Of a stretch of DNA of 58,780 bases, positions 2,068 to 58,780 are shown piece by piece; within the stretch, counting starts at the first letter, position 1; each line of letters starts with the position of its first letter. The notes beneath the pieces were generated by a model. The model saw only the letters and a list, made by a program, of their open reading frames with translations, was not told the origin of the DNA and searched no databases. Source of the stretch: a virus. Lineage: Duplodnaviria > Caudoviricetes. The position numbers and the translations under genes were made by a program. The stretch spans positions 1 through 58,780 of IMG/VR virus record IMGVR_UViG_3300008459_000049; one strand, written 5' to 3'.

Positions 2068-2074
2068 TAACTAT

Positions 2075-14647: not shown

Positions 14648-14665
14648 ATGTCTTCCCTCTAGACA

Positions 14666-15046: not shown

Positions 15047-15057
15047 TTTATTTTTCC

Positions 15058-25803: not shown

Positions 25804-25815
25804 TTTATTTCCTTT

Positions 25816-27897: not shown

Positions 27898-27900
27898 TTT

Positions 27901-29055: not shown

Positions 29056-29803
29056 TTAAATAATCCTTAAGAAGAACATCGTAAGTATAGCATGTTTTAT
29101 TATCTAAGAAAAAAATATTTTTATTATATTCATATTCTTTAAATTCTACTAGCTCATTAAAATTTAAATTTTTTTGATTATAAATGTCAATAATAAAATT
29201 TTTAATATCTACCGTATATCCTGATCCTATTATACGACTTTCTGTTGTTTTTTTTAATTCATTTGCTACATAATTTGCATGCAATAATTCTCTTTTTATA
29301 TTTAAATTTCCTAATTTTATTTTTTCATTATTTTTTATAGAATAAAAAATTTTTCCAAAAAGAAAGTCTTTACTTCTATATGAAGAATTAAAATTAAAAG
29401 GATAAATTATTTTTACGTTTTCTTTTTTTTGCAGCTCTAGAGTAATTTTTTTTTTAGAATCTGTATAGTAATTTTCTTCATAATTCCACGGAGTATTAAT
29501 ATTTATAGAACCATTACACTTGTTCCATAATTCCGTTGTAGACAGATAAAGTATTTCATTAGCATTAATTTTATTAATTATATCTAATGTTAGATTATAA
29601 TTAATATCATAAAAATTTTCTTTATATAGTATATTATTTGCAAATATTGTTCTTTGTTCAGCAAATAGTATAAATACTTTATTCCATCTATAATTAAAAA
29701 TTTCACTAGAAATATTTCTAGCACTTATCCTAATATAATCTTTAGGCAGATAATAGCTTATTTGAGAAGTATCTCCAATTATTAAATTATTAATAATATT
29801 CAT
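29045..29803 (-). CDS. Divergent SDR epimerase/dehydratase-like protein
   Basis: LST..YYTDSKK (YxxxK), FNFNS, and FLFGKI..LGNLNIKRELLH resembling Gmd. The Gly-rich NAD motif is degenerate (IIGDTSQIS). Confidence 0.55.
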   Translation of the reverse strand: MNIINNLIIGDTSQISYYLPKDYIRISARNISSEIFNYRWNKVFILFAEQRTIFANNILYKENFYDINYNLTLDIINKINANEILYLSTTELWNKCNGSININTPWNYEENYYTDSKKKITLELQKKENVKIIYPFNFNSSYRSKDFLFGKIFYSIKNNEKIKLGNLNIKRELLHANYVANELKKTTESRIIGSGYTVDIKNFIIDIYNQKNLNFNELVEFKEYEYNKNIFFLDNKTCYTYDVLLKDYLNDL

Positions 29804-29824
29804 CTTTTAGCCAATCTATTATAT

Positions 29825-30505
29825 TTATTGTTTTGGATTAAAATTTATTTTTTTTCGTTCTTGAAATAATTTTTCATCATGTGATAATTTATCTGGTGTT
29901 TCATTTTCTGCGTAAAGTTTATCATATGTTATTGATCTATTGAATGATGGTAATTCATGTTTAATAATACAGTAATCAATATATTTTAATTTATTAATAG
30001 ACGAACAGTATTCAGTATGCTCATTATCGCACCACCATGATTTATATTTTGGATAATAAATATATCCAATTGAATCATAGTATTTTTTACCAATTATAGA
30101 TTGAGTATTTAAGTCTTTTCTATAGCCATCATAAAACCACAAACAACCGTCTAGATCTGGGAAATATTTTTCCATTTCTTCTTGAATTTTTAAATCGTAG
30201 TCTTTAACGATTGGTATCATATCGTCAGCTGCGGATATTAATACATCCCAATTAAAATTAATTTTATTAATATCTCTGTTAATGGCATCTATTTTTGTTG
30301 TTCTCTTAGAAAAATAGATTTTTAGATTATCTATTTCAGATAATTTCTTTATTGTTTCTTGATTATTCATAGAAATATCATCAAAATCACAAGATATTAA
30401 AAACAAATATTCATTGTTGCCAGATAATAAATTAATATATTTTTCTAAAGTAGAAAAAAATTGCTGTTGTCTACTTCTTGTAGGAAACTTTATTAAAAAT
30501 TTCAT
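29825..30505 (-). CDS. GT2-like glycosyltransferase
   Basis: IKFPTRSR, CDFDD, KIDAIN, SAADDM (DxD-like) and WWCDNE motifs. Confidence 0.7.
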   Translation of the reverse strand: MKFLIKFPTRSRQQQFFSTLEKYINLLSGNNEYLFLISCDFDDISMNNQETIKKLSEIDNLKIYFSKRTTKIDAINRDINKINFNWDVLISAADDMIPIVKDYDLKIQEEMEKYFPDLDGCLWFYDGYRKDLNTQSIIGKKYYDSIGYIYYPKYKSWWCDNEHTEYCSSINKLKYIDYCIIKHELPSFNRSITYDKLYAENETPDKLSHDEKLFQERKKINFNPKQ

Positions 30506-30508
30506 ATT

Positions 30509-32491: not shown

Positions 32492-32492
32492 A

Positions 32493-33737
32493 TTAAAATT
32501 CCTTTACAGTCCAAGATGTATAATTTTTTCTAGTGTCCCACGATCCATGTTTTTCATGAACTTCTTTCATTATTCTATCCCAGTTTTTGCAGAAGTTATC
32601 AAAGCTAAAATTCTTATTTACGAACTCACAACCTTTTTTACCAAGTTCTTTTCTTTCTTGTCTACTCATATTATGAATATACATCATCGCATCAACAACA
32701 TCTTTGTTGGACACTCTGTCTTCATAAATATATGGAACATCTTGGCTGCCAATAACAGCCTTTGATGCTGGTTCTATAAGAACTCCAAATTGTGTTTCTC
32801 CGTCAGTTAATTGATCCTGTATACCGCCAGTTTTATTTCCTATAACTGGCGTTCCGCACGACAATGATTCAAGAACAGAAAGACCAAATCCCTCTGCATC
32901 ACTTATGTTTATTGTGCAATCTGCTGCGTTGTAGAATTGTGCCATTACTTGCTGTGGTACTTTTCCAGTAGAAAGACCAAAATTTTCTTTTGTAAGACCT
33001 AACTCTTGAGCTATTGCTTGTAAATCTTGTCCGTTTGGATCTTTTGGATCAGTGTGCATTAATAGATATGCCTTATCATGCCCAACTTTATCTAGGAATT
33101 CTTTATACCACCATACAACGCTTCCACTCATTTTTCTGCGTGCATTTCTATTTGTCCAAAAAAATAAAGTTTTATTTGTGTGCATAAATTGCTTGTAATC
33201 TTCTACTGGAAGTGGTCTAAAAATTTCTGGATCTACTGCATGTGGAAGATATTCTTCTTCTACTTCTGGCGCTACAGTTCTAACGATATCACTAGTTAAT
33301 TTACTAATTGTAACAATTTTATCATTTGATAGATAAAATTTACGATTAAATTTTGGATATGGATAGTTGTCCCATACGTGATAATAAACAATAGGAACAT
33401 TACAACGAATCTCTTGCTCAAAATTCCATAGCCAAGTCCAAAATCTTGGATCTGTCATAATCCACATAATATCTGGCTTAAAATCTCTTATAAAATTTCT
33501 AATCATGTCTGGGGTTCCGTAGCCATCTACAGGAATTAAAGTTAAATCTTCTCCCCATTGTTGAAATCTTGTTGGTCTATAATCATTATGTTTAATAGCC
33601 CCACCAATATATAGAATTTGATAATCGCCAGTTTTTAAGAGAGAATCAACCATAAATTTACTTTGACCACCAACTCCAGAAGATGAAAGATAATGATCAG
33701 AAATAACAATAACTTTTATTTTTTTCTTATCTGACAT
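32493..33737 (-). CDS. GT4 glycosyltransferase
   Basis: SGVG, RNARRK and EGFGLSVLESLSCGTPVI motifs. Confidence 0.88.
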   Translation of the reverse strand: MSDKKKIKVIVISDHYLSSSGVGGQSKFMVDSLLKTGDYQILYIGGAIKHNDYRPTRFQQWGEDLTLIPVDGYGTPDMIRNFIRDFKPDIMWIMTDPRFWTWLWNFEQEIRCNVPIVYYHVWDNYPYPKFNRKFYLSNDKIVTISKLTSDIVRTVAPEVEEEYLPHAVDPEIFRPLPVEDYKQFMHTNKTLFFWTNRNARRKMSGSVVWWYKEFLDKVGHDKAYLLMHTDPKDPNGQDLQAIAQELGLTKENFGLSTGKVPQQVMAQFYNAADCTINISDAEGFGLSVLESLSCGTPVIGNKTGGIQDQLTDGETQFGVLIEPASKAVIGSQDVPYIYEDRVSNKDVVDAMMYIHNMSRQERKELGKKGCEFVNKNFSFDNFCKNWDRIMKEVHEKHGSWDTRKNYTSWTVKEF

Positions 33738-34707
33738 TTATAATTTCCTTTTTTAGGTCATTATCATACATTATTTTTGCCAATTCTTTAATTGTAGTTT
33801 TTGGTTTCCAGCCAAGTATTCTTTCTGCTTTACTTCTATCGCCTTGTAATAGCGGAACTTCACTTGGGCGCTTGTATTGTTCATCAATAACAATATATTG
33901 CATTAAGTCATACCCAGCAATTTCAGAAACGCAAGATATAAATTCATTGATTGTATAAGTTTCTCCGGTTGCAAGAACATAATCATCTGCAACATCGTGT
34001 TGCAGCATCATCCACATTCCTTCAACATATTCTTTTGCATATCCCCAGTCTCTACGCGCATCAAGATTACCAAGTCTTAATTCTTTTTGTAGTCCTAGTT
34101 TTATTCTTGCAGCTGCTTTTGTAATCTTGCGAGTTACAAACTGTTCACCGCGACGTTCGCTTTCATGATTAAAAAGAATACCAGAGCAAGCAAAAAGCCC
34201 ATAAGCCTTACGATAATTAATCACAAGATTATGAGCAGCTACTTTTGCACAAGCATATGGGGAAACTGGTGATAATGGTGTTAGCTCTCCTTGTGGTACA
34301 GCACTATTATCTCCAAACATCTCACTGGTGCTGGCTTGATAAAATCTTGTCGATGGAGATATATTTCTTATGGCTTCAAGACAATTTAATGTTCCATTAG
34401 CATTAATATCAAAAGTGCTTTCTGGAGAAGTAAATGAAACGCCTACGTGGCTTTGCGCTGCTAGATTATAGAATTCATCTGGTCTATATTTTGCTATAAT
34501 TCTCCATATCGAAGATGTATCAGAAATGTCTCCATTTTCCAATATTACATTTTTATTGTCTAATAAATGTTCTATATTAAAAAATTTTTTATCCTCCATA
34601 GAAGATCGCCTTACAACACCAACAACTAGGTAACCTTTTTCTAACAAAAATTCTGTTAAAAAGCTTCCATCTTGTCCATTTATTCCAGTTATAACAGCAG
34701 TTTTCAT
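33727..34707 (-). CDS. gmd: GDP-mannose 4,6-dehydratase
   Basis: ITGINGQDGS, YNLAAQSHV, QASTSEMFG, SPYACAK, GILFNHES, FVTRKIT and GNLDARRDWG motifs. Start placed at MKTAV (34707). Confidence 0.95.
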   Translation of the reverse strand: MKTAVITGINGQDGSFLTEFLLEKGYLVVGVVRRSSMEDKKFFNIEHLLDNKNVILENGDISDTSSIWRIIAKYRPDEFYNLAAQSHVGVSFTSPESTFDINANGTLNCLEAIRNISPSTRFYQASTSEMFGDNSAVPQGELTPLSPVSPYACAKVAAHNLVINYRKAYGLFACSGILFNHESERRGEQFVTRKITKAAARIKLGLQKELRLGNLDARRDWGYAKEYVEGMWMMLQHDVADDYVLATGETYTINEFISCVSEIAGYDLMQYIVIDEQYKRPSEVPLLQGDRSKAERILGWKPKTTIKELAKIMYDNDLKKEIINVR

Positions 34708-34718
34708 ATTTTTGTTCC

Positions 34719-35492
34719 TTATGGGCAATGCACTGTATTTTTATACTCACAATATGTGCAATTAAGTTTATTTTTTGGATAATTCTTTTTGTTAATATTA
34801 TATAAAGCTTTATTTAGAAAGTTAAGAGCATTTTGGATTTTTTTAGGACCACTTGTAACTCTAAAGATTTCAACTTGATTTTTTTTAGCAGTTCTTTTAA
34901 GAAGAGCAAAATATGTTTCTATGTTCTTTACATCTACGCCATGCTTTTGTGCATAGAAATGTTTATAGAACGTTAATTGATAAGTAGTAATCTTATCACT
35001 TTTTTTCTTTGCATCCCATCCCCAAGCACAAGATTTCCAATCAATAATATGGATTTTCTCATCTTCAGTTTGAATAATAAGATCTATGAAGCCTTTAAAA
35101 TTATAACCAAGATCTGGATCTTGTTTAATAGACTCATAGATGTCCTCTTCTGCTGCGAGAACTTTAAATTGTCCAAATTTTTGTTTAAGAGAAGGAATTA
35201 CTTTTGTAGATAAAGTTTTTCCTTGTTCAATCATATCAATGATTAATTTTTCATCAACCTTTTGATTGTTTTCTTTTAGAATCTTTATCTCTTCATTAAA
35301 TTTATTTAAGAAGATTTCTTGTTCATTAATATTATCATCTTGTACTTTTAGTTCTGCGGCTTCATGTAAAGCTGTACCAAAAGCAGTATATTCAGATCCA
35401 GAATATACATTCACTCTATCTTCATATGATAATTTATATTTAAACGGACACTCGTTCCAAACTTTAAGCGCTGAAAAAGATACATGCGACAT
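34719..35492 (-). CDS. PD-(D/E)XK nuclease, Cas4/AddB-like with Fe-S staple
   Basis: ECPFKY, FGTALH, GFIDL..IIDWKS, YQLTFY and C-terminal CTYC..C. Confidence 0.85.
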   Translation of the reverse strand: MSHVSFSALKVWNECPFKYKLSYEDRVNVYSGSEYTAFGTALHEAAELKVQDDNINEQEIFLNKFNEEIKILKENNQKVDEKLIIDMIEQGKTLSTKVIPSLKQKFGQFKVLAAEEDIYESIKQDPDLGYNFKGFIDLIIQTEDEKIHIIDWKSCAWGWDAKKKSDKITTYQLTFYKHFYAQKHGVDVKNIETYFALLKRTAKKNQVEIFRVTSGPKKIQNALNFLNKALYNINKKNYPKNKLNCTYCEYKNTVHCP

Positions 35493-39105: not shown

Positions 39106-39184
39106 TGGTGGACCATTTCGGTAACGCTCCGAACTGAATTTCTGCGTGCAAGGCAGACGACCACACTATGCAGTCCCATGGCCC
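39106..39184 (-). tRNA. tRNA-Ala(UGC), non-canonical D/T arms
   Basis: Acceptor GGGCCAT/ATGGTCC with G3:U70 and an ACCA end. Anticodon arm TCTGC-CTTGCAC-GCAGA. T-arm TTCGG-AGCGTTA-CCGAA lacks the TTC loop. Confidence 0.75.
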
Positions 39185-39199
39185 AATAAAGGAATAATT

Positions 39200-39739
39200 A
39201 TGAAAACTATAACACAAACTTGTAAAGAATGTAAAGAAATTTTTCAAGCTCAATTACGTGAAGTAAATAGGGGCAATGGAAAATATTGTTCCTTAAAATG
39301 TTCAAGAATTGGCGTTGCTAAAACTCACTTAGCGCGTACTGCTGAAATTAATAAACCTAATGTTGAATGTGCTCACTGCCATAAAATGTTTTATAAAAAG
39401 GTATCTAATAGAAACAAATCTAAGTCTGGATTGTATTTTTGTTGTAGAGAGCATAAAGATATCTCTCAAAGAATAGGAGGTATAAAAGAAATACAGCCGC
39501 CTCATTATTCTTTAGGTAAACATTGTTACCGCGATATTGCATTTCGTAATTATCAACATCAATGTGCAAAATGTTTTTACTCAAAAATTCCAGAAATTTT
39601 AGAAGTTCATCACGTTGATAGAAACAGAGAAAATAATTCTATTGAAAATTTAATAATTCTATGCTCTAGATGTCATGATGAAGAACATTTTTTAACTAAA
39701 ACTGGTAAATGGGGTCAGAAAGAAACATTTACCAGTTGA
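39200..39739 (+). CDS. HNH homing endonuclease with N-terminal Cys-rich zinc-finger repeats
   Basis: ATG 39200 after AAGGA. Repeated CxxC..YCSxxC units, then CAKC..LEVHHVDRNRENNSIENLIILCSRCHDEEH. Antisense to its neighbours. Confidence 0.88.
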   Translation: MKTITQTCKECKEIFQAQLREVNRGNGKYCSLKCSRIGVAKTHLARTAEINKPNVECAHCHKMFYKKVSNRNKSKSGLYFCCREHKDISQRIGGIKEIQPPHYSLGKHCYRDIAFRNYQHQCAKCFYSKIPEILEVHHVDRNRENNSIENLIILCSRCHDEEHFLTKTGKWGQKETFTS

Positions 39740-47787: not shown

Positions 47788-48351
47788 TTAAAAAGTATAA
47801 AATTGAAAGTCTATTTTTTCATCAACAAGCCGTTGCCAAACTTTTAATGTTCTATGACAATCAACCAGAGCGGTATGTGTTCTTCCATCAGAAGAAATTT
47901 TATAATGTTCACACAATTTATCCATTGAAGTGCTTTTTATAACTTTTCTTTCAACAAGAGTTTGTGCCATTCTTTTTGTATCTATGTAATTTGGAAATTT
48001 TGGCGGAAGATAATTTAGATTAACAAATGATTGTTTTATAAACCTTAAATCAAAATTAAGATTCTGACCAAGCATTAGATCACAGCTTTCAATAGCAAGA
48101 CGTATTTGTGATACACACTTAGAAAACGGCACAGAACCACGCCATTTATCTTTTGTATATCCATTTATACGCAACGCTTCAGGGCTAGCAGATTCAATTC
48201 TTTGAGGAGCGATAAGAAATTCACGCTCTTCAAGAATTTTTATTGAATTATCTGCTTCGCTTAAATTAACGATTATATATCCTAATTGAATTATTTCATG
48301 TTTTAGGATATCAAGCCCTGTTGTCTCTGTGTCTAATACTATTATTTTCAT
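47788..48351 (-). CDS. DEDDh 3'-5' exonuclease (DnaQ-like)
   Basis: VLDTETTGLD, GQNLNFDL and HTALVDC motifs. Confidence 0.9.
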   Translation of the reverse strand: MKIIVLDTETTGLDILKHEIIQLGYIIVNLSEADNSIKILEEREFLIAPQRIESASPEALRINGYTKDKWRGSVPFSKCVSQIRLAIESCDLMLGQNLNFDLRFIKQSFVNLNYLPPKFPNYIDTKRMAQTLVERKVIKSTSMDKLCEHYKISSDGRTHTALVDCHRTLKVWQRLVDEKIDFQFYTF

Positions 48352-48860
48352 CTATTTAACCAAAATTTCCAACTTGGATGTAAGTAGTTTTCATTATAAA
48401 AACCCTTTATTTCATTTACAAAAGGCAGACTATGCGGCTTTTTTGGCTGCTTTAGCAGCTTAAAACCAACATCCTTAAGAGTCTTGTCAGCCTTTTTTTG
48501 ATTACAAGATTCGCAACAAACTACAACATTATCCCATGTTGTTTTACCGCCATAAACTTTTGGATTGATATGATCAAGGGTAAAATTATTTATATTAATC
48601 TGCTTTGCACAATATTGACAAGTACCCTCATCACGCAACCAAACATTTTTTCTTGAGAATCTAACAGAGTTAATTTTTTTACCTCTTGTTGTTTTCATAA
48701 CAACAACAGATGGAATCTTTAATGAAAAAGATGTAGAATGAACTTCTGTATCATACTCCTCAAGAGGGATGATTTTATTTAAGAACAATAGACTAATTGC
48801 CTTCTGCCATGAAATAGTGCCAATCGGCTCATAATTAGAGCCTAAAGTTAAGACCCGCAT
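48348..48860 (-). CDS. HNH endonuclease (McrA-like)
   Basis: RDEGTCQYC..TLDHINP..GGKTTWDNVVVCCESCNQKK. Start re-placed at MRVLTL after AAGGAG, because the upstream ATG overlaps the -10 of a TTGACG-17-TATGAT promoter (48880-48908). Confidence 0.88.
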   Translation of the reverse strand: MRVLTLGSNYEPIGTISWQKAISLLFLNKIIPLEEYDTEVHSTSFSLKIPSVVVMKTTRGKKINSVRFSRKNVWLRDEGTCQYCAKQININNFTLDHINPKVYGGKTTWDNVVVCCESCNQKKADKTLKDVGFKLLKQPKKPHSLPFVNEIKGFYNENYLHPSWKFWLNR

Positions 48861-48912
48861 ATTCAACTCCTTGCCAATTATCATAGCATCAGCGATCCTC
48901 TACGTCAACAGC

Positions 48913-49258: not shown

Positions 49259-49816
49259 ATGCCAACAAAAATTTGCACAGCATGTAATATAGAAAAAAGT
49301 ATAGAAGAATTTCATAGAGTAGAAAAAGGTTCAGAAAAAAGAAGAGCGCAATGCGTTGAATGCAAGAGCAGCAAGTGGAAAACATATTACAGCAACGAAG
49401 AAAATAAAATTCATCACCTAAAAACAAAAAAAAGTTATCGGGAAAAAACCCGAAACTCAGAAACGCATATAATTATGCGTCTTATTGACCAGTCAAAAAA
49501 ACGTGCAAAGGAAAAAGGATTCCAGCATACAATAACACAAACAGATATCCAGTTACCAAAACACTGCCCAGTATTAGGCTTAAAATTAGTCGCAAACAAG
49601 GGCGAAGTATCCAGCAATTCATATTCGCTTGATCGCGTCAGATCAGATGGCGGATACACACCAGATAATATACAGGTTCTATCTTTTAGAGCAAACTCCC
49701 TAAAAGGCGATGGAACATGCGAAGAGCATCTAAAGATAGCAAGTTATATAAATAAGGAAGAAAACCCGTTTAAACGGCTCGTAAACGCGTTTAAAGCGTT
49801 TATCTTGATGCTCTAG
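49259..49816 (+). CDS. Free-standing His-Me-finger/HNH-like homing endonuclease
   Basis: N-terminal KICTAC..EF..CVEC finger. CPVLG..SLDRVRSDGGYTPDNIQVLSFRANSLKG. GGGAG RBS. Antisense insertion. Confidence 0.75.
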   Translation: MPTKICTACNIEKSIEEFHRVEKGSEKRRAQCVECKSSKWKTYYSNEENKIHHLKTKKSYREKTRNSETHIIMRLIDQSKKRAKEKGFQHTITQTDIQLPKHCPVLGLKLVANKGEVSSNSYSLDRVRSDGGYTPDNIQVLSFRANSLKGDGTCEEHLKIASYINKEENPFKRLVNAFKAFILML

Positions 49817-51096: not shown

Positions 51097-52131
51097 TTAT
51101 AATCCCTTTTGTAAAATTCTTTTAACTGCACCTGTTACAAGATCAACTCCTCCATCATTTGCTTGTATCTTTTTTGTAACCTTTATCAAAACTCGCGCAA
51201 TGGATTCTGGGTCATTTTTATGAGCAGCATCAAGATGTTTCATTGCGTCACGAACGTCATCCGCTGTTAAATTTTTTGCTAATTCGGGTGCTGATTTAAC
51301 CGCACCAGCAACAGATGTAACTGCATTAGAAACTTGTCCAGCTGCATCGCTAGCAGCATTAACAGCAGAATGGAACACATCAGCAAATGGATTACCAGCC
51401 ATTGTTGCTTTGCCTTTTGCAACAGAAATAGCATCAGATAGAACTCGATTTACCAATTCACTTGTTGTGGCATCTAGTTTTTTATTAGTTGTAATCATGT
51501 CAACAAGTTTGTTTGCAATGTTTGCATCAATACCGCTTGTTTGTTGGAATGAGGTATCTTTTAATACATCTATAACCGCTTTTGCATCACCTGTTAAATT
51601 TGCAACATCGCCACCAACTTGACGAACGGCAACCTCTGCATGGGCAGATGAAATACCGTATTTCCAGACAAGATAGGCAAACGCAGCAACCGATATAATT
51701 TTTAGTAAATCTTTTATTAAACCGTATGCAGTTGGGTGACTCTTTTTAAAAGCGGAGATAAATGAGTCAATCTTCTTGCAGAATTCAATTGCTTTACGAC
51801 CAGCGGATTTAGCTAGTGAAAGAGCTTTTGAGAGCATCCCTTTTACTTTTTCTACAACTGCACCTTTTATTTTTGAGAAGGTTCCCGATATGCCACCAAG
51901 TGCTTCATTAAGAACTTCTGGTGATTGGGATTCAAGCCATCTTAGGTCGTTGTTAATTGACTCAGAGAGGACTTGAACGTATTCCCTAGTTGATATATTT
52001 TTTGCGTTGTGTTCGGTGATCAGTTGTGATAGGGTAACTGTGCTGCCTTCTGAAAGTGGGATTTTTGTTGTATCTGTTTCTTTTATGAAAGTTCTCCACT
52101 CTTTCATAATTTTTTTCATGTTTGTTGACAT
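51097..52131 (-). CDS. Ala-rich helical protein with a central hydrophobic segment, candidate ejected protein
   Basis: 344 aa. N-terminus rich in IKE/LSE/ITE/LNE. Hydrophobic IISVAAFAYLVW segment. AAGGAG RBS. Confidence 0.55.
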   Translation of the reverse strand: MSTNMKKIMKEWRTFIKETDTTKIPLSEGSTVTLSQLITEHNAKNISTREYVQVLSESINNDLRWLESQSPEVLNEALGGISGTFSKIKGAVVEKVKGMLSKALSLAKSAGRKAIEFCKKIDSFISAFKKSHPTAYGLIKDLLKIISVAAFAYLVWKYGISSAHAEVAVRQVGGDVANLTGDAKAVIDVLKDTSFQQTSGIDANIANKLVDMITTNKKLDATTSELVNRVLSDAISVAKGKATMAGNPFADVFHSAVNAASDAAGQVSNAVTSVAGAVKSAPELAKNLTADDVRDAMKHLDAAHKNDPESIARVLIKVTKKIQANDGGVDLVTGAVKRILQKGL

Positions 52132-52399
52132 TTATATAGCTCCTTTGTGTTTCTATAAATAGTATCTCGTAAATAAGAAATCTAGAAAAATGGCCCGTAG
52201 TTTAAAAATGCCCTAGCTCTTGTTTTTGAAAAAAATCTTTTTATCAAGCGAATAGTTTTCCGGTATTTTTTTATTCTATATTGACAAGGGGGGAAGGGGG
52301 AGGAGGGGGTGGCAGCTTTCAAACTTTTTTGAAAGTTCAAAAACAAAAAACAAAAACAAACAAAAACTTTTGTTCCAGCCGAAAACTTTTTAGTTTGAC

Positions 52400-52427
52400 A
52401 AAAGAAAAAACCCGCGCTAGGCGGGTT
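52400..52427 (-). terminator. Intrinsic terminator closing the early-type region
   Basis: AACCCGC-CTAGC-GCGGGTT followed by TTTTCTTTT on the minus strand, right after ORF 52434. Confidence 0.75.
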
Positions 52428-52433
52428 CCTTCC

Positions 52434-52694
52434 TTAGAGGTTAGCTGTTGGATCAACGCGAGGCGGTCGATCCCCGCGTGACGGTCCCCATTCCATTCGT
52501 TCCTTTATCTTTGATAGGTCTTCATTCCTCTTGTCTGCAATCGCTTGTAGGTTCTCCCGCTTGTATCCCCAACAAACAACCCCGTCCACCTTATCTCCCA
52601 CCATACTGATTAGTGCATATTGATTATACTCACCATCAGTCTTGAAACCAAGGGTGCCTGCCTCTTGCCTATCTACTACATTATAACGTGCCAT
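52434..52694 (-). CDS. Hypothetical early protein
   Basis: Start MARYNVV after GGAGGT. Confidence 0.7.
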   Translation of the reverse strand: MARYNVVDRQEAGTLGFKTDGEYNQYALISMVGDKVDGVVCWGYKRENLQAIADKRNEDLSKIKERMEWGPSRGDRPPRVDPTANL

Positions 52695-52695
52695 G

Positions 52696-52812
52696 TTAAC
52701 CTCCAAAGGTAAGAATGAATGCGGTGATAACGGAACCGCTCAAAGCTCCAAGTGCAAGGGAATAAAGAACAAGCTGGCGAACTTCCCGATCATTGTGCGT
52801 ATAGGTGATCAT
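52696..52812 (-). CDS. Small membrane protein (38 aa)
   Basis: MITYTHNDREVRQLVLYSLALGALSGSVITAFILTFGG*. GGAGG RBS. Confidence 0.6.
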   Translation of the reverse strand: MITYTHNDREVRQLVLYSLALGALSGSVITAFILTFGG

Positions 52813-52886
52813 GTTCCCTCCAAGATCATCCGACGTGCAGTTAGACGAACCCGCTTGACAGCAACCCGCTTGCTGAACCGCTTCAT
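52809..52886 (-). CDS. Possible 25-aa Arg/Lys-rich peptide
   Basis: MKRFSKRVAVKRVRLTARRMILEGT*. ATGA overlap with the next gene. Weak RBS. Confidence 0.35.
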   Translation of the reverse strand: MKRFSKRVAVKRVRLTARRMILEGT

Positions 52887-52914
52887 CTTTCGGGATGAAT
52901 CACACCAGAAGAAC

Positions 52915-53142
52915 TTACCAGTCATAATCGGCCTCCGCACGAATGTCGTCAGCATAATCCTTACGCAGCTTCACCGCAATTTCGTAGTGTTCAAAAACCT
53001 GATGCCAATCAGCCAGTTCGTGGTTCTTCACTTCGGTCATAAAGTCACCAAACTCCTCACACTCAACAATCCAATCCCATCCCTTGGTGTAGTTCTTGCG
53101 AGCGTGCTGCTGGAGGGCATCAAACATTTCCTGATGGGTCAT
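52915..53142 (-). CDS. Hypothetical early protein (paralog of 56123-56359)
   Basis: ALQQHARKNYTKGWDWIVEC vs ALMEYGRLFYNEGWDELVES. Confidence 0.7.
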   Translation of the reverse strand: MTHQEMFDALQQHARKNYTKGWDWIVECEEFGDFMTEVKNHELADWHQVFEHYEIAVKLRKDYADDIRAEADYDW

Positions 53143-53248
53143 CTTGTCTCTCGCTTGTTGGTGTCGGTCAGTTCCGACTCAACGGTTATCTCATGGATGG
53201 CTGCGGAGTGCAACAAAAAAAGAGCAGGTCGATTGTTGTTTTTTTCTC

Positions 53249-53334
53249 TTGACACCGGGAAAAGGAGATGATATACTGAACGAGCCGCCGCAGCGCGGCG
53301 GCCAGATTTTACCACAAGCGGTTTCTGCTGTCAA
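53249..53334. promoter_or_regulatory. Convergent promoter cassette 1
   Basis: Plus strand TTGACA-17-TATACT (53249-53277). Palindrome GCCGCCGC-AGC-GCGGCGGC (53284-53302). Minus strand TTGACA-17-TAAAAT (53334-53306). Confidence 0.8.
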
Positions 53335-53374
53335 GAGAAAAAAGCATCAAGGGTTGGCGATGTTTGACGCAGTG

Positions 53375-53418
53375 CAATGGGGATTGCAAGCCATTGTTCC
53401 GACCTACAATCCCCATTG
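53375..53418. repeat. 12-bp inverted repeat
   Basis: CAATGGGGATTG ... CAATCCCCATTG, flanked by TGCAA motifs, just downstream of the wHTH-like gene. Confidence 0.85.
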
Positions 53419-53428
53419 TTGCAATATG

Positions 53429-53794
53429 TTACTCCTTACGGCGATTGGCGTTCATCGCCTCACGACGCTCCCACAGATCACGCGCAAGCTCGCGGTCCAC
53501 ATCATGCCCACGCGAGAACGCGAGGATCATGTCAAACGCCTGAGAGGTAACAGAATCGCCACCTTCGGTCTTAGGAGCGGGCATCGAACCAGCGGGCCAG
53601 CTTCCACCATCACGACCCTTGCGAGTCTCCAGAACGCCCGTATCATGGGCGAACTTGATAAGGGAAGCGTTGTACTTCCCAACGTGCTGCATCACACCGC
53701 GAGGACAACCGCTGTTGTTGGCGGTGTTATACTGGCGAACGAACTCCACCAGAGCGTCGATCTGAGCCACGTCGATCTGCACCTTGTCACCCAT
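53429..53794 (-). CDS. Winged-helix-like DNA-binding protein, paralog A
   Basis: GVLETRKGRDGGSW resembles the Rrf2-type wing. C-terminus closely similar to 55221-55583. Start MGDKV after AAAGGTGG. Confidence 0.6.
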   Translation of the reverse strand: MGDKVQIDVAQIDALVEFVRQYNTANNSGCPRGVMQHVGKYNASLIKFAHDTGVLETRKGRDGGSWPAGSMPAPKTEGGDSVTSQAFDMILAFSRGHDVDRELARDLWERREAMNANRRKE

Positions 53795-53918
53795 AACAGC
53801 ATCCACCTTTCATGGAGGCGATCCATTCGCCTCACCGCAGCAGCATCACCGGCTGCCGACTCACCTTTTATCTCACACCAGCAGGAAGAGTGCAACCTTT
53901 TTTTTGCTCTATCGGCAG

Positions 53919-54000
53919 AGTGCAGTTGCAATCCAGTTGCACTTGCAAGGCGATTGTAGTTGTCACCAGGTCCCAAGTGCAACTGGATTGCAACTGCACT
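53919..54000. repeat. Perfect 27-bp inverted repeat, 28-nt spacer
   Basis: AGTGCAGTTGCAATCCAGTTGCACTTG ... CAAGTGCAACTGGATTGCAACTGCACT. Confidence 0.95.
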
Positions 54001-54027
54001 TCTCTGCCGGTGCGTGTTCTTTTTTTG

Positions 54028-54116
54028 TTGACACCGGGAAACAGGTGTGGTATACTGAACGCGCCGCCGCGCTGCGGCGGCTCGGGCATTATAGCATATG
54101 CCCGAAACCGCGTCAA
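54028..54116. promoter_or_regulatory. Convergent promoter cassette 2
   Basis: Plus strand TTGACA-17-TATACT (54028-54056). Palindrome GCCGCCGC-GCT-GCGGCGGC (54063-54081). Minus strand TTGACG-17-TATAAT (54116-54088). Confidence 0.82.
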
Positions 54117-54125
54117 GCGTTTTTT

Positions 54126-54311
54126 TCAATCCTCGTAGTTGTCCCAATACTCGGTGCGAGTAAGTGGCGCACCGTTTGCATATTCGTCCTCCATCTCCGC
54201 GATCCGCTGTTGCTCCCATTCGTCGCAGTCGATGCAGAGGTTCAAAACGTTGTTGGACTGATAACCCTTGTGGAGTTCAGACTTGCAGCTTTCGCACTCG
54301 AAGGTTTCCAT
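54126..54311 (-). CDS. Small acidic zinc-finger protein
   Basis: CESC..CIDC. GGGAG RBS. Confidence 0.7.
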   Translation of the reverse strand: METFECESCKSELHKGYQSNNVLNLCIDCDEWEQQRIAEMEDEYANGAPLTRTEYWDNYED

Positions 54312-54383
54312 CTTGTTCTCCCTTTCGGCACCGTGCCGATGATCCTTTGTATCGCAGAGCGGATCGCTTGTCCAGCTTTTTTT

Positions 54384-54488
54384 CTAGAACGGACCAACAA
54401 TATCTTTGATCGCAGAGTAGACAACAGCACCTGCAAGGCCGATTGCCGTCATGCCACCAACAAACAGAACGCAGTAGATGATCGTCAT
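54384..54488 (-). CDS. Small membrane protein (34 aa)
   Basis: MTIIYCVLFVGGMTAIGLAGAVVYSAIKDIVGPF*. GAGGA RBS. Confidence 0.6.
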   Translation of the reverse strand: MTIIYCVLFVGGMTAIGLAGAVVYSAIKDIVGPF

Positions 54489-54495
54489 TGTTTCC

Positions 54496-54582
54496 TCAGT
54501 GGTCAAGAGTATACAGCGCGGCAGCAGTGATTGCAACAACAATGATGGTGGAGAAAAGGATATTCAGGATTCGGTCGCTCAT
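54496..54582 (-). CDS. Small membrane protein (28 aa)
   Basis: MSDRILNILFSTIIVVAITAAALYTLDH*. GGAGG RBS and its own promoter at 54609-54637. Confidence 0.6.
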   Translation of the reverse strand: MSDRILNILFSTIIVVAITAAALYTLDH

Positions 54583-54719
54583 GTGTGGCCTCCGTTGTTG
54601 ATGATGTAGTTATACACGACGGGGTTGGAGCGGTCAACTTTTTCTTTTGTTCTATCCGCAGGATTGACGCGCTGCGTCTGGTGGAACAGGAAAAGGTGGT
54701 GGTGGTTGTTCTTTTTTTG

Positions 54720-54817
54720 TTGACACCGCTTGCTGGTTATGGTATACTGGGCAAGCCGCCAGCCAGCCGCCCGCTTGCGGGCGGCTCGATTATAGCATAA
54801 TCGAGAAACCCTGTCAA
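54720..54817. promoter_or_regulatory. Convergent promoter cassette 3
   Basis: Plus strand TTGACA-17-TATACT (54720-54748). Palindrome AGCCGCCCGC-TT-GCGGGCGGCT (54765-54786). Minus strand TTGACA-17-TATAAT (54817-54789). Confidence 0.82.
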
Positions 54818-54868
54818 CATGAAAAAGAGCGTGAGCGTTTTTTTCTGGAACGCTCAAAACCAGATACT

Positions 54869-55099
54869 CTAGCGTGCGAGAGTATGCGTCACATTCCTGA
54901 CATGAGCGTCAACCATTCGCATCATTCGACCGCTGCGGATCGTACCCTCGGAGCCGTTGTCGTTGACATAAACATAAACCTTTTTCTGGCGCTTCGCCCA
55001 TTCGCGGATTGCCTTGACGGTCTGAAACTCATACAGCTTGCCACTCTTTTGAGCGGCGGTGGAACCCTTCGAACGGATAATGCGTTGTGCGATAATCAT
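54869..55099 (-). CDS. Small basic hypothetical protein
   Basis: 76 aa. GAGGA RBS and a 5' hairpin at 55116-55134. Confidence 0.65.
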   Translation of the reverse strand: MIIAQRIIRSKGSTAAQKSGKLYEFQTVKAIREWAKRQKKVYVYVNDNGSEGTIRSGRMMRMVDAHVRNVTHTLAR

Positions 55100-55220
55100 C
55101 TTTTCCTCTTTTCTGTCGGCGCACCGTGCGCCGAAACTTTGTATACACTACAGGTTTTTTTGTGGAGAGTCAAGCGAAAGAGCGGGGGTTTTTTCTTGGG
55201 AACCCCCGAAACCCTTTCGC

Positions 55221-55583
55221 CTACTCGCCCTTACGACGATTGGCGTTAAGGGCTTCCCGCTCATCCCAAAGGTCGCGGGCAAGCGAAGGGTCGATATTCT
55301 CACCGCGACTGAAGGCAAGGATCATATCGAAAGCGCGAGCGGTTACACTAGGCGTGGAATCCTCAGTCTGGGGAACCTCACCGAACGGGAAAACGCCCCC
55401 CGTCTTTCCCTTCGTCTTTTCGACCATGCGGGTTTCCACCGAATAAGCCAGCTCTGCGGGAGTGAACCCAAGAGCATGAACAATATGCCCAGAGGGGCAA
55501 CCGCGACCATTCACCTTGACGTACTCCCGAACTGCAAGAGAAAGAGCCACAACGCGATCACCGTTCACAGTAGCCTTCGCCAT
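55221..55583 (-). CDS. Winged-helix-like DNA-binding protein, paralog B
   Basis: MVEKTKGKTGGVFP wing. SVTARAFDMILAFSRG..LARDLWDEREALNANRRK is shared with paralog A. Confidence 0.6.
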   Translation of the reverse strand: MAKATVNGDRVVALSLAVREYVKVNGRGCPSGHIVHALGFTPAELAYSVETRMVEKTKGKTGGVFPFGEVPQTEDSTPSVTARAFDMILAFSRGENIDPSLARDLWDEREALNANRRKGE

Positions 55584-55830
55584 TCGCCTATCCTACCTTT
55601 CGCGCTTTCGCGCCTTTCGTTTTGTGGCTTGCGGGAACCATTCCCGCTCACCGTCTTACCCACTCTTTATACCGTGGAACCCGTCCCGCTGTCCAGTCTT
55701 TTTTTCGACCCCTTGCTTTTTTCCTACCGTGCCGCGTCACCCGTTCACCGCGTCACCATTGTCTTTTCTCATATCCCGCCGGGGATTGCAAGCGGTTTTT
55801 TTTGGGCAGATCCAGGAATCGCTTTCTGCC

Positions 55831-56079
55831 TTATTCCCAATCCCATTCGGCGGCTGGCAAAATGCCATTTAGATCATCGCCATAAACATATTTGAGCAAA
55901 TGGGGCTGAATCTCATTCACCGAAACCGATCCGATCTCATTCTCGAAACCGTTTACAAGTGCTGTCCGAATATCGCTTCGGTGCTTATTGTCAATAAAAT
56001 AATATTCCCATCCATTCTTTAGAATGGCATATCCGTGGACAGTTATCCGCTGATTGCCATTCCGCATAATGCGAGACAT
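55831..56079 (-). CDS. Hypothetical early protein
   Basis: 82 aa with AAGGAG RBS. GWEYY..ALVNGFENEIGSV. Confidence 0.7.
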   Translation of the reverse strand: MSRIMRNGNQRITVHGYAILKNGWEYYFIDNKHRSDIRTALVNGFENEIGSVSVNEIQPHLLKYVYGDDLNGILPAAEWDWE

Positions 56080-56122
56080 ATCTCTACTCCTTTGTGGATA
56101 TTCTTTTTTTGTTTCTCTCTTG

Positions 56123-56359
56123 CTAGTTTATAGCAGACTGTCCATGATGATCTGGATTGAATCGGTTATTGAAAAAGACGATTGCGTCATCCAGCTTTGT
56201 GATATGATTGAAGAATAGGGTATTGAATATATCATCTGACGTATAACTTTCAACCAGTTCATCCCATCCTTCATTGTAGAATAAGCGCCCATATTCCATT
56301 AGTGCAGGAATCAAATCCTCTATCTCTATTTCCATTCTGTACTTATCGTCAATCTCCAT
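56123..56359 (-). CDS. Hypothetical early protein (paralog of 52915-53142)
   Basis: Start MEIDDK after GAGGA. Shares the Y..GWD.xVE motif. Confidence 0.65.
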   Translation of the reverse strand: MEIDDKYRMEIEIEDLIPALMEYGRLFYNEGWDELVESYTSDDIFNTLFFNHITKLDDAIVFFNNRFNPDHHGQSAIN

Positions 56360-56459
56360 TATTATTCCTCGCTGTTCTTTCCAGGAATATGGAGCATACC
56401 ATACCACCGATACCCGCGCAATGGTTTATTATAGGTATATTGAATATATCGGCATATCC

Positions 56460-56557
56460 AGCCGCCCTTTTAACCTATTATACCCGTACTAATATAGTAG
56501 GGTACTACTATATAGGTATAATAGGTTAAAAGGGCGGCTAGGTTAACCTATTATACC
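56460..56557. repeat. Perfect 25-bp inverted repeat plus a third partial copy
   Basis: AGCCGCCCTTTTAACCTATTATACC (56460-56484) / GGTATAATAGGTTAAAAGGGCGGCT (56515-56539). TTAACCTATTATACC recurs at 56543-56557. Confidence 0.92.
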
Positions 56558-56742
56558 TTATGTAATACATTGTTTGAGCACCCCCCACCCCGGTATTATA
56601 TTACCCACGATGGGGGGATTAGGTTACCGCTTATCCCCTAATGGTGTTCCCGATCCCAACACCATTGGCAGAAAGGGGGATGGGGGATAAGTGGATCTGC
56701 CCTATCACCGCAGATCACACAACGCTTTATATTATCCACTGT

Positions 56743-57417
56743 TTACTCCTTATGGGAGAAATACTTTTTCTGCCCTTCGGTCAAAGCCTTATTACCATGG
56801 TAAGTTAACCCAATCTTGATTGTTCCCTCGATAGCATTAACGTCAGTTTCTGAACCGTTTTCATACCCCGCACGGATACGATCATCATCCGTTGTGAAGA
56901 TACGGGAATGGGGCATATTAAGGTTTACAAGGTTATCGTGCTTTCCACCAAGGGACTGAGTGATACGGAAGTTTTCGGGCTTATTCCCAAACAGATCCAT
57001 ATTCACAGTCTTGGTATATGCATAAAAGATCATATGGGGAAGTGCCTTAGCGATATCACACCACTTGCGGTAATACTCCATATTGTAGAAATCACCTGAA
57101 TCATGGATACGGACAGTATTCACTTTCCGCATACGCTTCAAATCAGCGATTGCATTATCCACGAAATCGCTTTGGAGGGACATGGTGAGATTAAAGATAC
57201 GGGCATTAACCACATTAGAGAAACGGTACATACCCTGTTTCGCATAACAAGGATCACGACAAGCGAGAGCAGCGGGACAAGTATTATACTTTTTGCCATC
57301 CACCTGGAAATCATAATCAGCGGGGATACCGAAACCAACAATAGTGTAAACACCACCATTGTCCTTATTCAGCTTCTCATTACCGTTAGTCCACTTGAGG
57401 TAGAAAGGCTTTGCCAT
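56743..57417 (-). CDS. Gp88-family phage protein (Cys-cluster, radical-SAM-like)
   Basis: TCPAALACRDPCYAKQG, VRIHDSGDFY and FYAYTK pattern as in mycobacteriophage gp88-like proteins. Confidence 0.75.
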   Translation of the reverse strand: MAKPFYLKWTNGNEKLNKDNGGVYTIVGFGIPADYDFQVDGKKYNTCPAALACRDPCYAKQGMYRFSNVVNARIFNLTMSLQSDFVDNAIADLKRMRKVNTVRIHDSGDFYNMEYYRKWCDIAKALPHMIFYAYTKTVNMDLFGNKPENFRITQSLGGKHDNLVNLNMPHSRIFTTDDDRIRAGYENGSETDVNAIEGTIKIGLTYHGNKALTEGQKKYFSHKE

Positions 57418-57488
57418 TATCGTTTCCTCCGTTGCGGTGATGGTCGCTTATACCCCGGCACGCTTCCGTTGTCACGCCTTTTTTTAAG

Positions 57489-57752
57489 CTAAACGGGCAA
57501 ACCGCATTCCACAAAACGGTAGCCACGCTCTTGGAGGATAACACGCAAACTGTTTTGGTGGTTACTGGTAGTACAGGAATACCTATTCACATTCAAACGA
57601 TAGGGATCTCCGATATTATCAGGAGTAACAAGGATGATAGTATTATAGGAATAGATGTGAACACCGTCAGTCCAGATGGACTTATTCTTTTCCTTGTTAT
57701 CCCGAATGTTATTACGCCATGCCGTGAAAACCCGAATAGTGTTCTTCCGCAT
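57489..57752 (-). CDS. Hypothetical early protein
   Basis: Start MRKNTI after GGAGG. TDGVHIYSYNT..YSCTTSNHQ. Confidence 0.7.
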   Translation of the reverse strand: MRKNTIRVFTAWRNNIRDNKEKNKSIWTDGVHIYSYNTIILVTPDNIGDPYRLNVNRYSCTTSNHQNSLRVILQERGYRFVECGLPV

Positions 57753-57918
57753 AACGATACCCTCCGTTGTGTGCCGTTGTTCGATGGTGTGAATATACAC
57801 GACCGCACGCCCGCTGTCCACCCCATATTTAGGGCAAATGCAGGAACGGTGATAGGGATAAAGTTAAATGCTTTTGGGGCGGCTGGAAAACCCTTTATAG
57901 AAGCTCTTTAGGTGGTGC

Positions 57919-58113
57919 CTAATCTACTGGAGTTACGTTGCATACATCAACCCAACAATCATCCAGTTTCTCTAATGGCAGAAACCGCATATAGGCAATA
58001 CCTGTTTTATTTCTCAATCTAAGAATAATCCCATATGCATATCTGTCATTCTTATCTGCACTCCAAGCACGAATACGGGTTCTTGCCATCTGCCCAATCT
58101 TTAATGTGCTCAT
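57919..58113 (-). CDS. Small hypothetical protein (SH3-like beta-barrel pattern)
   Basis: 64 aa, LKIGQMAR..YGIILR..WVD. Confidence 0.55.
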   Translation of the reverse strand: MSTLKIGQMARTRIRAWSADKNDRYAYGIILRLRNKTGIAYMRFLPLEKLDDCWVDVCNVTPVD

Positions 58114-58319
58114 GAGTGTATCCTAAAATCCCATGTACGATTGTTAAATGCAGCAGAGGGATATGTAACGTTATTACTTAGATTCCATAAATCATATCTT
58201 TCATCTGTTACACTATCACCGGGATGTACCTTTAGTATAAACAGGTAATATATTTCATTCTTTCGATTAACATCTTTTGGATGCCCAATGATAATCTGTC
58301 CAGCTACTGGCTTTATCAT
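58110..58319 (-). CDS. Small hypothetical protein
   Basis: 69 aa, ATGA-coupled to the downstream gene. Promoter immediately upstream. Confidence 0.55.
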   Translation of the reverse strand: MIKPVAGQIIIGHPKDVNRKNEIYYLFILKVHPGDSVTDERYDLWNLSNNVTYPSAAFNNRTWDFRIHS

Positions 58320-58576
58320 AGCTTATCCTAGCATATATCCAACTTGGAGTCAAGTAGATATTAGGAACATATAGGGAAAGGGGATTGCTATTATATCCCT
58401 ATTCTCCCCAATCCCTATATGCTTATAACCCCTATTAACCCTTACGGTTTAGACGCCTCGCTCTACGCTTTTTACTTCCTAACTTCCTTCGACCTTTACG
58501 TGGGCGGTTCTTATGTGGATGTGGCATACGGGTATCACCTCCCTTCTATACTGGTATATAGGTATTGGGCATATTG

Positions 58577-58650
58577 CCAGCCGCCCGTAGGGCGGTAAAC
58601 CAATTATACCGTTATCCTTAACCTTTTTTCCGCCCCAAAGGGGCGGCTGG
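58577..58650. repeat. Nested inverted repeats related to the 56460 element
   Basis: Outer CCAGCCGCCC / GGGCGGCTGG. Inner hairpins CCGCCC-GTA-GGGCGG and CCGCCCC-AAA-GGGGCGG. Confidence 0.8.
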
Positions 58651-58780
58651 TTACTTGTAAAACATTGTTTAGACCCCCCCTACCCTACTGGAATATTGGG
58701 GCTTATACTACATATGGTATAGGGTCTGGATTGAACATAGGGTTTAGGCTAATACCCCCACTACATATAGTGGACTACCC

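Follow-up and report, generated by a model that had tools for sequence, protein, structure and literature searches.

Background

What might a phage gain from host-type promoters that point at each other across a GC-rich hairpin and recur between its small genes? The question is raised by the stretch of DNA analysed here, the complete and linear IMG/VR virus record IMGVR_UViG_3300008459_000049 of 58,780 bp (hereafter referred to as the window), in which three cassettes of about 95 bases lie within 1.6 kb (53249-53334, 54028-54116 and 54720-54817). In each cassette a plus-strand promoter of the sigma70 type faces a minus-strand promoter across a GC hairpin. The original prediction, which had drawn attention to the cassettes, assigned them to a jumbo phage and did not recognise them as a described phage element. 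The jumbo label could not be established, the record being a 58.8-kb fragment with a CheckV completeness of 32%, and the novelty of the cassettes was found to be partial, as discussed below.

Promoter-early stem-loops (PeSLs) are repeats of about 100 bp described in the hyperplastic regions of T4-type phages, namely RB49/phi1, PST/T4 and nt-1/KVP40 (PMC2839356; PMC4122927). In the passages of these two papers drawn upon here, a PeSL comprises an A/T-rich tract, an early promoter of the sigma70 consensus and a G/C-rich stem-loop located upstream of, inside or just downstream of the promoter; its far end is formed by the Shine-Dalgarno sequence and start codon of the gene that follows, and it carries one promoter in one direction (PMC2839356; PMC4122927). 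PeSLs flank ORFans and mediate their exchange (PMC2839356; PMC4122927), with crossovers that map in or beside the stem-loop (PMC2839356).

Architecture of the cassettes

The absence of a credible plus-strand gene past the plus-strand promoters, proposed earlier, was borne out by ribosome-binding sites and homologues, which put the genes on the minus strand; the plus-strand open reading frames (ORFs) past these promoters overlap supported minus-strand genes on the opposite strand. Accordingly, 'forward' denotes here the minus-strand promoter of a cassette and 'backward' the geneless plus-strand promoter with TATACT. Within the gene order, the forward promoter aims at the downstream small genes and the backward promoter at the upstream gene.

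The facing promoters were present at all three places, in the form of a plus-strand TTGACA-17-TATACT and a minus-strand TTGAC(A/G)-17-TA(T/A)AAT (Table 1). Promoter sites were scored over the 12 positions of the sigma70-type -35 and -10 consensus. All the six cassette promoters score 11-12 of 12, possess the TG of an extended -10 (6/6) and constitute the top six of the 27 sigma70-like sites scored in 52000-58780. Tracts of T5-T7 precede the -35 boxes, with an A7 tract instead at the forward arm of cassette 2. The boxes and the 17-bp spacing are kept among the copies, as had been noted, but the spacers are not wholly different, those of the plus-strand promoters in cassettes 1 and 2 sharing their first 8 bases.

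The -10 hexamers are separated by 28, 31 and 40 nt in cassettes 1, 2 and 3, respectively, and enclose stems of 8-9 bp made up of G and C only, with folding energies of -18 to -25 kcal/mol. The motif GCCGCC begins 6 nt past TATACT in all three, and this pattern occurs three times in forward and never in reverse orientation in the record (none in the control). The predicted start sites of both promoters of cassette 1 fall in or at its hairpin. In cassette 2 the forward -10 lies within a second palindrome of 7-8 bp, and the forward -35 begins 10 nt past the stop codon of a 61-aa gene. No terminator-like site was reported at the cassette hairpins on either strand and the tails after the stems are not T-rich; an intrinsic (rho-independent) terminator was rejected as an identity for the hairpin, there being no U tract directly after the stem. 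A scan of the window with Rfam returned nothing at the cassettes.

Table 1. Coordinates of the cassettes and of other features of the window and the related loci (positions are those of the window unless a locus is named).
Feature	Position	Strand	Description
Cassette 1, backward (antisense) promoter	53249..53277	+	TTGACA, 17 bp, TGa, TATACT; T7 tract just upstream; 11/12
Cassette 1, GC hairpin/palindrome	53284..53302	.	8-bp stem, 3-nt loop; -18.3 kcal/mol
Cassette 1, forward (sense) promoter	53306..53334	-	TTGACA, 17 bp, TGg, TAAAAT
Cassette 2, backward promoter	54028..54056	+	TTGACA, 17 bp, TGg, TATACT; T7 tract upstream
Cassette 2, GC hairpin	54063..54081	.	8-bp stem identical to that of cassette 1, loop complemented
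Cassette 2, forward promoter	54088..54116	-	TTGACG, 17 bp, TGc, TATAAT
Cassette 3, backward promoter	54720..54748	+	TTGACA, 17 bp, TGg, TATACT; T7 tract upstream
Cassette 3, GC hairpin	54755..54785	.	9-bp stem at 54765-54786; extra GCCGCC half-arm before it, 54755-54760
Cassette 3, forward promoter	54789..54817	-	TTGACA, 17 bp, TGc, TATAAT; 12/12; -10 within 9-bp palindrome
Small-gene array with cassettes between genes	52434..55583	-	ORFs of 120, 76, 28, 34, 61, 121, 75, 48, 38 and 90 aa
Intrinsic terminator at end of array	52404..52426	-	GC stem and T6; read by eye, not in terminator scan output
Inverted repeat, perfect, 27 bp	53919..54000	.	28-nt centre; between cassette 2 and 121-aa gene, in its 5' leader
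GC-rich island	52400-56100 (up to 58780)		window
GC-rich island	750-5100		L006
GC-rich island	~9500-14500		L058
GC-rich island	~9500-16000		L059
Promoter-hairpin-tRNA-like loci			L011, L012, L015, L016, L019, L020 and others among L010-L053

Comparison with shuffled sequences and other genomes

The three facing pairs (both arms at least 10/12) of the GC-rich island at 52400-56100 were compared with 300 dinucleotide shuffles, which yielded none; the shuffled island carried on average 0.18 and 0.17 promoters of at least 10/12 on its two strands. Over the whole AT-rich window the same three pairs were the only ones detected, against a mean of 0.37 and a maximum of 3 in 100 shuffles, and the metagenomic relative L006, described below, has four pairs against none in 300 shuffles. 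Chance does not explain the facing pairs.

Phage RB49 was examined over positions 1-50000 and 100001-150000 of its 164018 bp. Sites of at least 10/12 numbered 108 on the coding strand and 19 on the opposite strand of these 100 kb, and only one facing pair was found, which is weak and devoid of both the TG and a hairpin. Among viral contigs, the full pattern of the cassette centre gave no match, while two matches to the backward arm with GCCGCC were set aside as chance and three to the forward arm with hairpin as unrelated.

In bacterial genomes, a search with a pattern of our own choosing picked 44 sites with a forward promoter and a GCCGCC hairpin, none of which (0/44) has a backward promoter within 70 nt. 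Many of these 44 sites precede tRNA genes of the Oscillospiraceae: in genomes of Oscillospiraceae/Clostridia a GCCGCC...GGCGGC hairpin begins within 2-6 nt of a consensus promoter, and tRNA-like sequence comes next (Table 1). This arrangement suggests that a GC hairpin at the 5' end may be a recurrent leader of strongly expressed stable-RNA operons.

Conservation of the backward promoter in related loci

Relatives of the island were sought through its proteins. A scan of metagenome contigs with the 121-aa protein and its profile identified a single locus, L006 (6,241 bp), and the same protein or its alignment gave no match among viral contigs and genome contigs. The search with a neighbouring 344-aa protein returned two loci sharing an 18-residue match only and having no cassettes. 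A GP88-like neighbour gene was found at 80 viral loci. Island proteins recur in only four of these, namely L058 and L059, which were examined in detail, and with weaker likeness L060 and L061. A scan of the 80 loci for facing pairs detected eight pairs in six AT-rich loci, none with a GC hairpin.

L006 carries five cassettes of the same build. The backward arm is present in all five, and both arms reach at least 10/12 in four; the fifth combines a backward arm of 12/12 with a decayed forward arm of 9/12. For the eight cassette centres present in the window and L006 together, the folding energies all lie between -18 and -26 kcal/mol. Judged by the flanking sequences, cassette 3 corresponds to L006 1819-1916 and cassette 1 to L006 4095-4183, while cassette 2 corresponds in its forward half to L006 2879-2935 and in its backward half to L006 3051-3125. 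Cassette 2 has thus been split at the hairpin in L006, by an insert of about 135 bp that duplicates its hairpin.

Backward arms were compared in three orthologous pairs, cassettes 1, 2 and 3 of the window being set against L006-4, L006-3 and L006-1, respectively. Of the 42 positions in the boxes and the TG, 39 are identical, whereas the rest of the spacer has 14 identical positions out of 45 (Fisher p = 2e-9). The two usable pairs of forward arms agree at 27 of 28 positions in the boxes and TG and at 23 of 30 in the other spacer positions; the forward arm of L006-2, with its 16-bp spacer, and L006-5, for which the window has no orthologue, were left out of the comparison. In the contigs of the four best DNA runs (Logan; lake or freshwater metagenomes), which give fragmentary cover outside a variant of cassette 3, that variant (run X4) has a backward arm in which TTGACA and TATAAT are separated by 17 bases that differ from those of the window.

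L058 and L059 possess a GC-rich island with two paralogues of the 121-aa protein (about 39% identity) and genes for 82-aa and 90-aa proteins; Rfam returned tRNAs only from both loci. They have four and five backward promoters, respectively, each consisting of a T-tract, TTGAC, 17 bp, TGn and TAGAAT or TATAAT, and seven of the nine begin on a GC hairpin that follows the upstream gene. Back-to-back with the backward promoter, about 73 bp off, stands a forward one of lower score (9-10 of 12). Taking the four loci together, TTGAC, the 17-bp spacer and TGn are present in all 17 backward promoters listed, and 15 of the 17 adjoin a hairpin of -17 to -26 kcal/mol. Since L058 and L059 keep only the backward promoter and the hairpin, these constitute the conserved core, and the facing forward promoter is a feature of the lineage of the window and L006.

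The hairpins vary in sequence and not in pairing. When base pairs were counted by script from the loop outward, the 15 hairpins were found to comprise nine distinct stems and 11 distinct loops, with CG/GC flips that keep the pairing at every position. Because the flips preserve pairing and the loops vary, the stem is kept for its pairing, the loop not being the element recognised. On these comparisons, the hairpin is selected for pairing, and the backward site is under purifying selection for the elements contacted by polymerase and not for its transcript.

Selection on the promoters had been suspected earlier on account of the differing spacers, with the reservation that loss of the plus-strand boxes in relatives would reduce the symmetry to a by-product of inverted duplication. 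Both promoters look genuine and selected, beyond a by-product of symmetry, the backward arms having kept their boxes while their spacers are near random, and the relatives gave the opposite of loss: the backward promoter is kept in all of them (5/5 in L006, 15 hairpin-linked units over the four loci, and the X4 variant contig).

Relationship to the promoter-early stem-loops

Most of the defining features of PeSLs, as given in the passages of PMC2839356 and PMC4122927 drawn upon here, are shared by the window cassettes. These include a near-consensus sigma70-type promoter with an A/T-rich tract before the -35, a stable G/C-rich stem-loop in or beside the promoter, and repetition between the small ORFans of a variable region, as in the window island. 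The PeSL subclass with the stem-loop just past the -10 resembles the window cassettes, and in other PeSLs the stem-loop overlaps the -10, like the second palindromes of cassettes 2 and 3. However, the window cassettes carry a backward promoter fused to the hairpin, whereas PeSLs have a single promoter. Thus, the earlier statement that no described phage element matches is retained for the backward promoter and the face-to-face layout, which are absent from those passages, and given up for the remaining features. The words 'antisense' and 'bidirectional' are absent from PMC2839356, and the literature, searched without the supplementary material of the PeSL papers, yielded no account of phage early promoters that face each other in pairs across a hairpin. 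The window cassettes are accordingly described here as PeSL-like cassettes with an added and apparently selected backward promoter, which in this lineage stands face-to-face with the forward one.

Replacement, insertion or deletion of the gene blocks between the cassettes among relatives is a further likeness to PeSLs, seen here through one close relative, L006. The block between the orthologous cassettes 3 and 2 (window 54139-54707; L006 1929-2856) showed no blastn or tblastx match between the two; by this comparison, the gene block has been replaced and the cassettes retained. L006 also has an extra cassette (4626-4713) at the place of the 38-aa ORF of the window, and an additional paralogue of the 76-aa protein. 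PeSLs also excise mini-circles through recombination of neighbouring cassettes; in the contigs of the four DNA runs no joint between cassettes was detected, within their fragmentary cover.

Probable role of the cassettes

Considered as a whole, the cassettes are read here as PeSL-like elements that would mark gene boundaries and promote gene shuffling and that carry a selected backward promoter, a reading to which we assign a probability of roughly 0.55. The boundary mechanism taken by itself is put forward more tentatively. What the backward promoter does, be it interference, antisense RNA or supercoil coupling, we infer from sequence. The roles named in the original prediction, among them a sink for host RNA polymerase, a switch, antisense RNAs and origins or cruciforms, are likewise conjectural.

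Under the proposed mechanism, both promoters would be used by the host RNA polymerase early in infection. With transcription beginning at the usual 7 nt past the -10, both start sites of a cassette would fall within the stem or at its edge, with 15, 18 and 27 bp between them in the three cassettes. An open complex has a footprint of about -55 to +20, and with start sites this close a cassette would therefore admit one polymerase at a time; the mutual exclusion of polymerases envisaged in the original prediction thus follows from the geometry and textbook footprints, as an expectation rather than an observation. Each RNA would open with a base-paired GC stem. The backward promoter would compete with the forward one, and its polymerases would meet the upstream read-through head-on, so that the transcription units would be insulated without a classical U-tract terminator, a hairpin-capped antisense RNA being the by-product. 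In addition, crossovers that shuffle genes would take place in the conserved cassettes of about 100 bp, a role already suggested for PeSLs. In the lineage of the window, the pairing of forward and backward promoters would yield a one-polymerase-at-a-time toggle at each gene boundary. A wider and equally tentative proposal is that a backward host-type promoter starting on a GC hairpin may be a selected, recurrent device at early-gene borders in uncultured large phages, which would insulate by means of RNA polymerase in place of a U-tract terminator or tune expression by supercoiling, the toggle being its form here.

Several observations weigh against this interpretation. A search of sequencing runs listed no RNA run with this region, and the use of either promoter is deduced from the DNA. 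The face-to-face layout is not conserved, L058 and L059 having no forward promoter that faces the backward one, and their back-to-back geometry (about 73 bp) fits divergent coupling equally. Within 260 nt past the backward promoters a hairpin-plus-T site was found in none of the three window units and in five of 15 units overall, these being weak, and no canonical terminator was seen; because no terminator limits it, the backward RNA may extend in antisense across the upstream gene, at a likely cost to the phage. In work on phage 186, polymerases bound at a promoter are usually dislodged by elongating ones, and insulation by collision may for that reason be inefficient. The likeness to PeSLs also has its limits, since a window cassette, unlike a PeSL, does not extend to a Shine-Dalgarno sequence and start codon, and PeSLs occur in T4-type phages, to which the window phage is not established to belong. 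The next start codons lie about 160-290 nt past the forward start sites, with promoter-like motifs (by eye) in between.

The hairpin may also be compared with the 5'-terminal stem-loops of the ompA type, which stabilise mRNA. The window hairpin likewise lies at, or a few nt from, the predicted 5' end of both RNAs; however, stabilisation of mRNA needs only one promoter and leaves the backward promoter unexplained.

Alternative explanations

In IS10/Tn10, pIN and pOUT are closely spaced facing promoters whose transcripts have a few tens of nt in common at the 5' ends, on opposite strands, and one of the two RNAs is a stable noncoding hairpin. Two promoters facing at close range with overlapping 5' transcript ends are found in the window too, and the cassettes could be cis-antisense modules, in which a hairpin-capped small RNA would pair with the 5' end of the forward RNA or the 3' end of the upstream mRNA and control its stability or processing, in the manner of RNA-OUT and RNA-IN. 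An overlap of 16-28 nt is predicted for the transcripts. In cassettes 2 and 3 the backward RNA folds more stably than its shuffles (z = -3.7 and -3.1) and forms a second hairpin over the forward -10; the corresponding values for the forward RNAs of the cassettes are +0.6, -2.4 and -1.3. Yet the overlap in IS10 includes the sites at which translation of the target begins, its ribosome-binding site and start codon, whereas that in the window consists of the GC hairpin only and is distant from all start codons: neither these nor ribosome-binding sites were found in 53278-53305, 54057-54087 or 54749-54788. Moreover, the antisense body is not conserved in the window (14/45 for backward spacer and body), the loops are of 11 types in 15 hairpins, and no defined 3' end of the RNA was found. 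Such a pattern would be expected if selection acted on the binding of polymerase rather than on an RNA sequence. Phage antisense RNAs with mapped starts are known, to judge from the part of the source drawn upon (PMC10914365), and even so this explanation is considered unlikely.

Divergent-promoter coupling, in which backward firing would leave negative supercoils that ease the melting of the next forward promoter, sited in a GC-rich island of DNA that has just been injected, draws on L058 and L059, where the backward promoter is back-to-back with a weaker forward one as described above, and on the window, where a further promoter-like motif (by eye) lies 35-130 bp behind each backward -35. 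Geometry is its sole basis, however, and neither the start on a hairpin nor the strong facing forward promoter of the window and L006 would be explained by it, which renders it rather improbable as the principal role.

A shared operator would account for the outer GCCGCC...GGCGGC present in all eight cassettes of the window and L006, if the GC palindrome were bound by a dimeric phage repressor that shuts both promoters. The 121-aa and 120-aa paralogues might be candidates for such a repressor: the family has a predicted fold consisting of a winged helix and two C-terminal helices (pLDDT 84.5), and its best neighbours by Foldseek are the DNA-binding domains of Rrf2/IscR, LexA and MarR. These matches are weak, though (E 0.02-0.2, none at or below 0.001), and the compensatory flips in the stems, together with the different stems of L058 and L059, favour base pairing over a fixed protein site. 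The operator is thus regarded as improbable.

That the head-on pairs are a roleless by-product of recombination between opposed promoter-hairpin modules at the palindromic stem is suggested by the identity of the hairpin on both strands, by the L006 cassette that was split and duplicated at the hairpin, and by the mapping of PeSL crossovers to the stem-loop in the part of PMC2839356 drawn upon. It is made very improbable by the backward arms, in which the boxes, the 17-bp spacing, the TGn and the T-tract are kept while the spacers are near random, and by the persistence of backward promoters in relatives at about 39% protein identity.

The GC hairpins with 3-nt loops between early genes in the window resemble the early promoters of phage N4, and two giant ORFs of the window (3118 and 1986 aa) have no assignment; but these ORFs have no match in PDB sequences, Pfam or PHROG (a search limited to this genome fragment), the loops are not conserved, the flanking sigma70 boxes would be left unexplained and the island is not marked by a turn in cumulative GC skew, so that promoters for a phage RNA polymerase, like RNA-primed replication origins or cruciforms, are hardly to be expected here.

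Coliphages 186 (pR/pL) and P2 possess face-to-face lytic and lysogenic promoters subject to transcriptional interference, and convergent promoters with interfering polymerases are the point of likeness. Each promoter of 186 and P2, however, drives a gene set under repressors, whereas the backward promoter of the window is geneless, and the promoters of 186 form one pair only, at a distance of about 62 bp, whereas the pairs of the window are multiple, tandem and much closer; a convergent switch of this type was rejected, as it needs genes behind each promoter and all the supported genes are on the minus strand.

The small-gene array and its surroundings

On the minus strand, the array (Table 1) runs from the 120-aa and 76-aa ORFs through cassette 3, the 28-aa, 34-aa and 61-aa ORFs and cassette 2 to the 27-bp inverted repeat, the 121-aa ORF, cassette 1, the 75-aa, 48-aa, 38-aa and 90-aa ORFs and the terminator; the 28-aa and 34-aa ORFs were read by eye. 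The 121-aa (53429-53794, minus strand) and 120-aa (55221-55583, minus strand) proteins are paralogues with good ribosome-binding sites. They have 11 homologues in a large protein collection, on short ENA or Logan contigs, and each has homologues in L006, L058 and L059. Twelve ORFs of 52434-57821 were searched against PHROGs, and the nine at 52434-56407 were without a family; in Pfam, eight of these nine matched nothing and the ninth gave one match, below threshold. The 27-bp inverted repeat has no equivalent at that place in L006, and it is one of the two long palindromes that gave the only Rfam matches in the window, which are microRNA-like and sub-threshold.

A minus-strand promoter at 55145-55173 also has an 8-bp GC hairpin before its gene. 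Directly upstream of several genes a second promoter-like motif is found (in the window at 53187-53214 and 53868-53896, both minus strand), which is built, by eye, of an A/T run, GTTGCA(C/A), about 15 bp, TGaGATAA(A/C), about 4 bp and GAGTC, and which is conserved in L006 at ~3250-3305 and ~4215-4260. It may represent a weaker or differently timed class of promoter, comparable to the PmSLs of phage nt-1.

The window is AT-rich over about 52 kb (20-38% GC; the fragment has about 30% GC overall). The composition changes in a step at about 52.4 kb, to 51-53% GC over 53-56 kb and then 41-44% to the contig end. Since L006 is syntenic with both the island and its AT-rich flank, the island is not an assembly chimera. 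An early ORFan island of 50-58% GC within phage genomes of 30-40% GC is common to all four related loci; a foreign origin or an escape from the silencing of AT-rich DNA are guesses at the reason for the contrast. Where the island meets the AT-rich genome, a G-rich polypurine tract (52288-52312; C-rich on the coding strand), conserved in L006 at ~5165-5200, lies beside A-rich short repeats.

The AT-rich part encodes, on the minus strand, baseplate-wedge proteins (matches to phrog_219, phrog_6 and phrog_43), a sugar-modification cluster, PhoH, endolysins, a prohead protease and nucleases, and no diagnostic T4 core gene is present in this 32% fragment. The DNA runs that contain the island are lake or freshwater metagenomes, and in a collection of phages nothing similar was found, either with the island or with 20 kb of the window as query. 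The source is an uncultured freshwater myovirus, with the cassettes in an early-gene, ORFan-rich variable island.

Other features of the window were noted. A perfect 25-bp inverted repeat with GC ends (56460-56539) encloses facing TATAAT-like boxes (TTAACC-17-TATAGT and TTAACC-17-TATTAT, 9/12 each), and beside it a C-rich motif of about 30 nt occurs in two copies (56561-56590 and 58656-58685); both the repeat and the motif are conserved in L006 1-190. The giant ORFs at 2075-11431 and 15058-21018 (minus strand; 3118 and 1986 aa, respectively) flank the baseplate-wedge genes and probably encode tail or fibre proteins. Three HNH or endonuclease VII-like genes (39146-39739, plus; 48348-48884, minus; 49259-49816, plus), two of them on an otherwise empty plus strand, are probably homing endonucleases. 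Nucleotide-sugar epimerases, an aminotransferase and three glycosyltransferases are clustered at 24856-35492 (minus strand) and probably modify DNA or surface sugars.

Implications

PeSLs have so far been described as one-way promoter/terminator modules that also shuffle genes. If a conserved backward promoter belongs to such cassettes in several uncultured lineages, convergent or divergent polymerase traffic would be a routine part of early-region design. This would bear on the way in which densely packed strong promoters are insulated from one another in phages and on the origin of antisense transcription, and the cassettes may be of relevance as compact bidirectional parts for synthetic biology.

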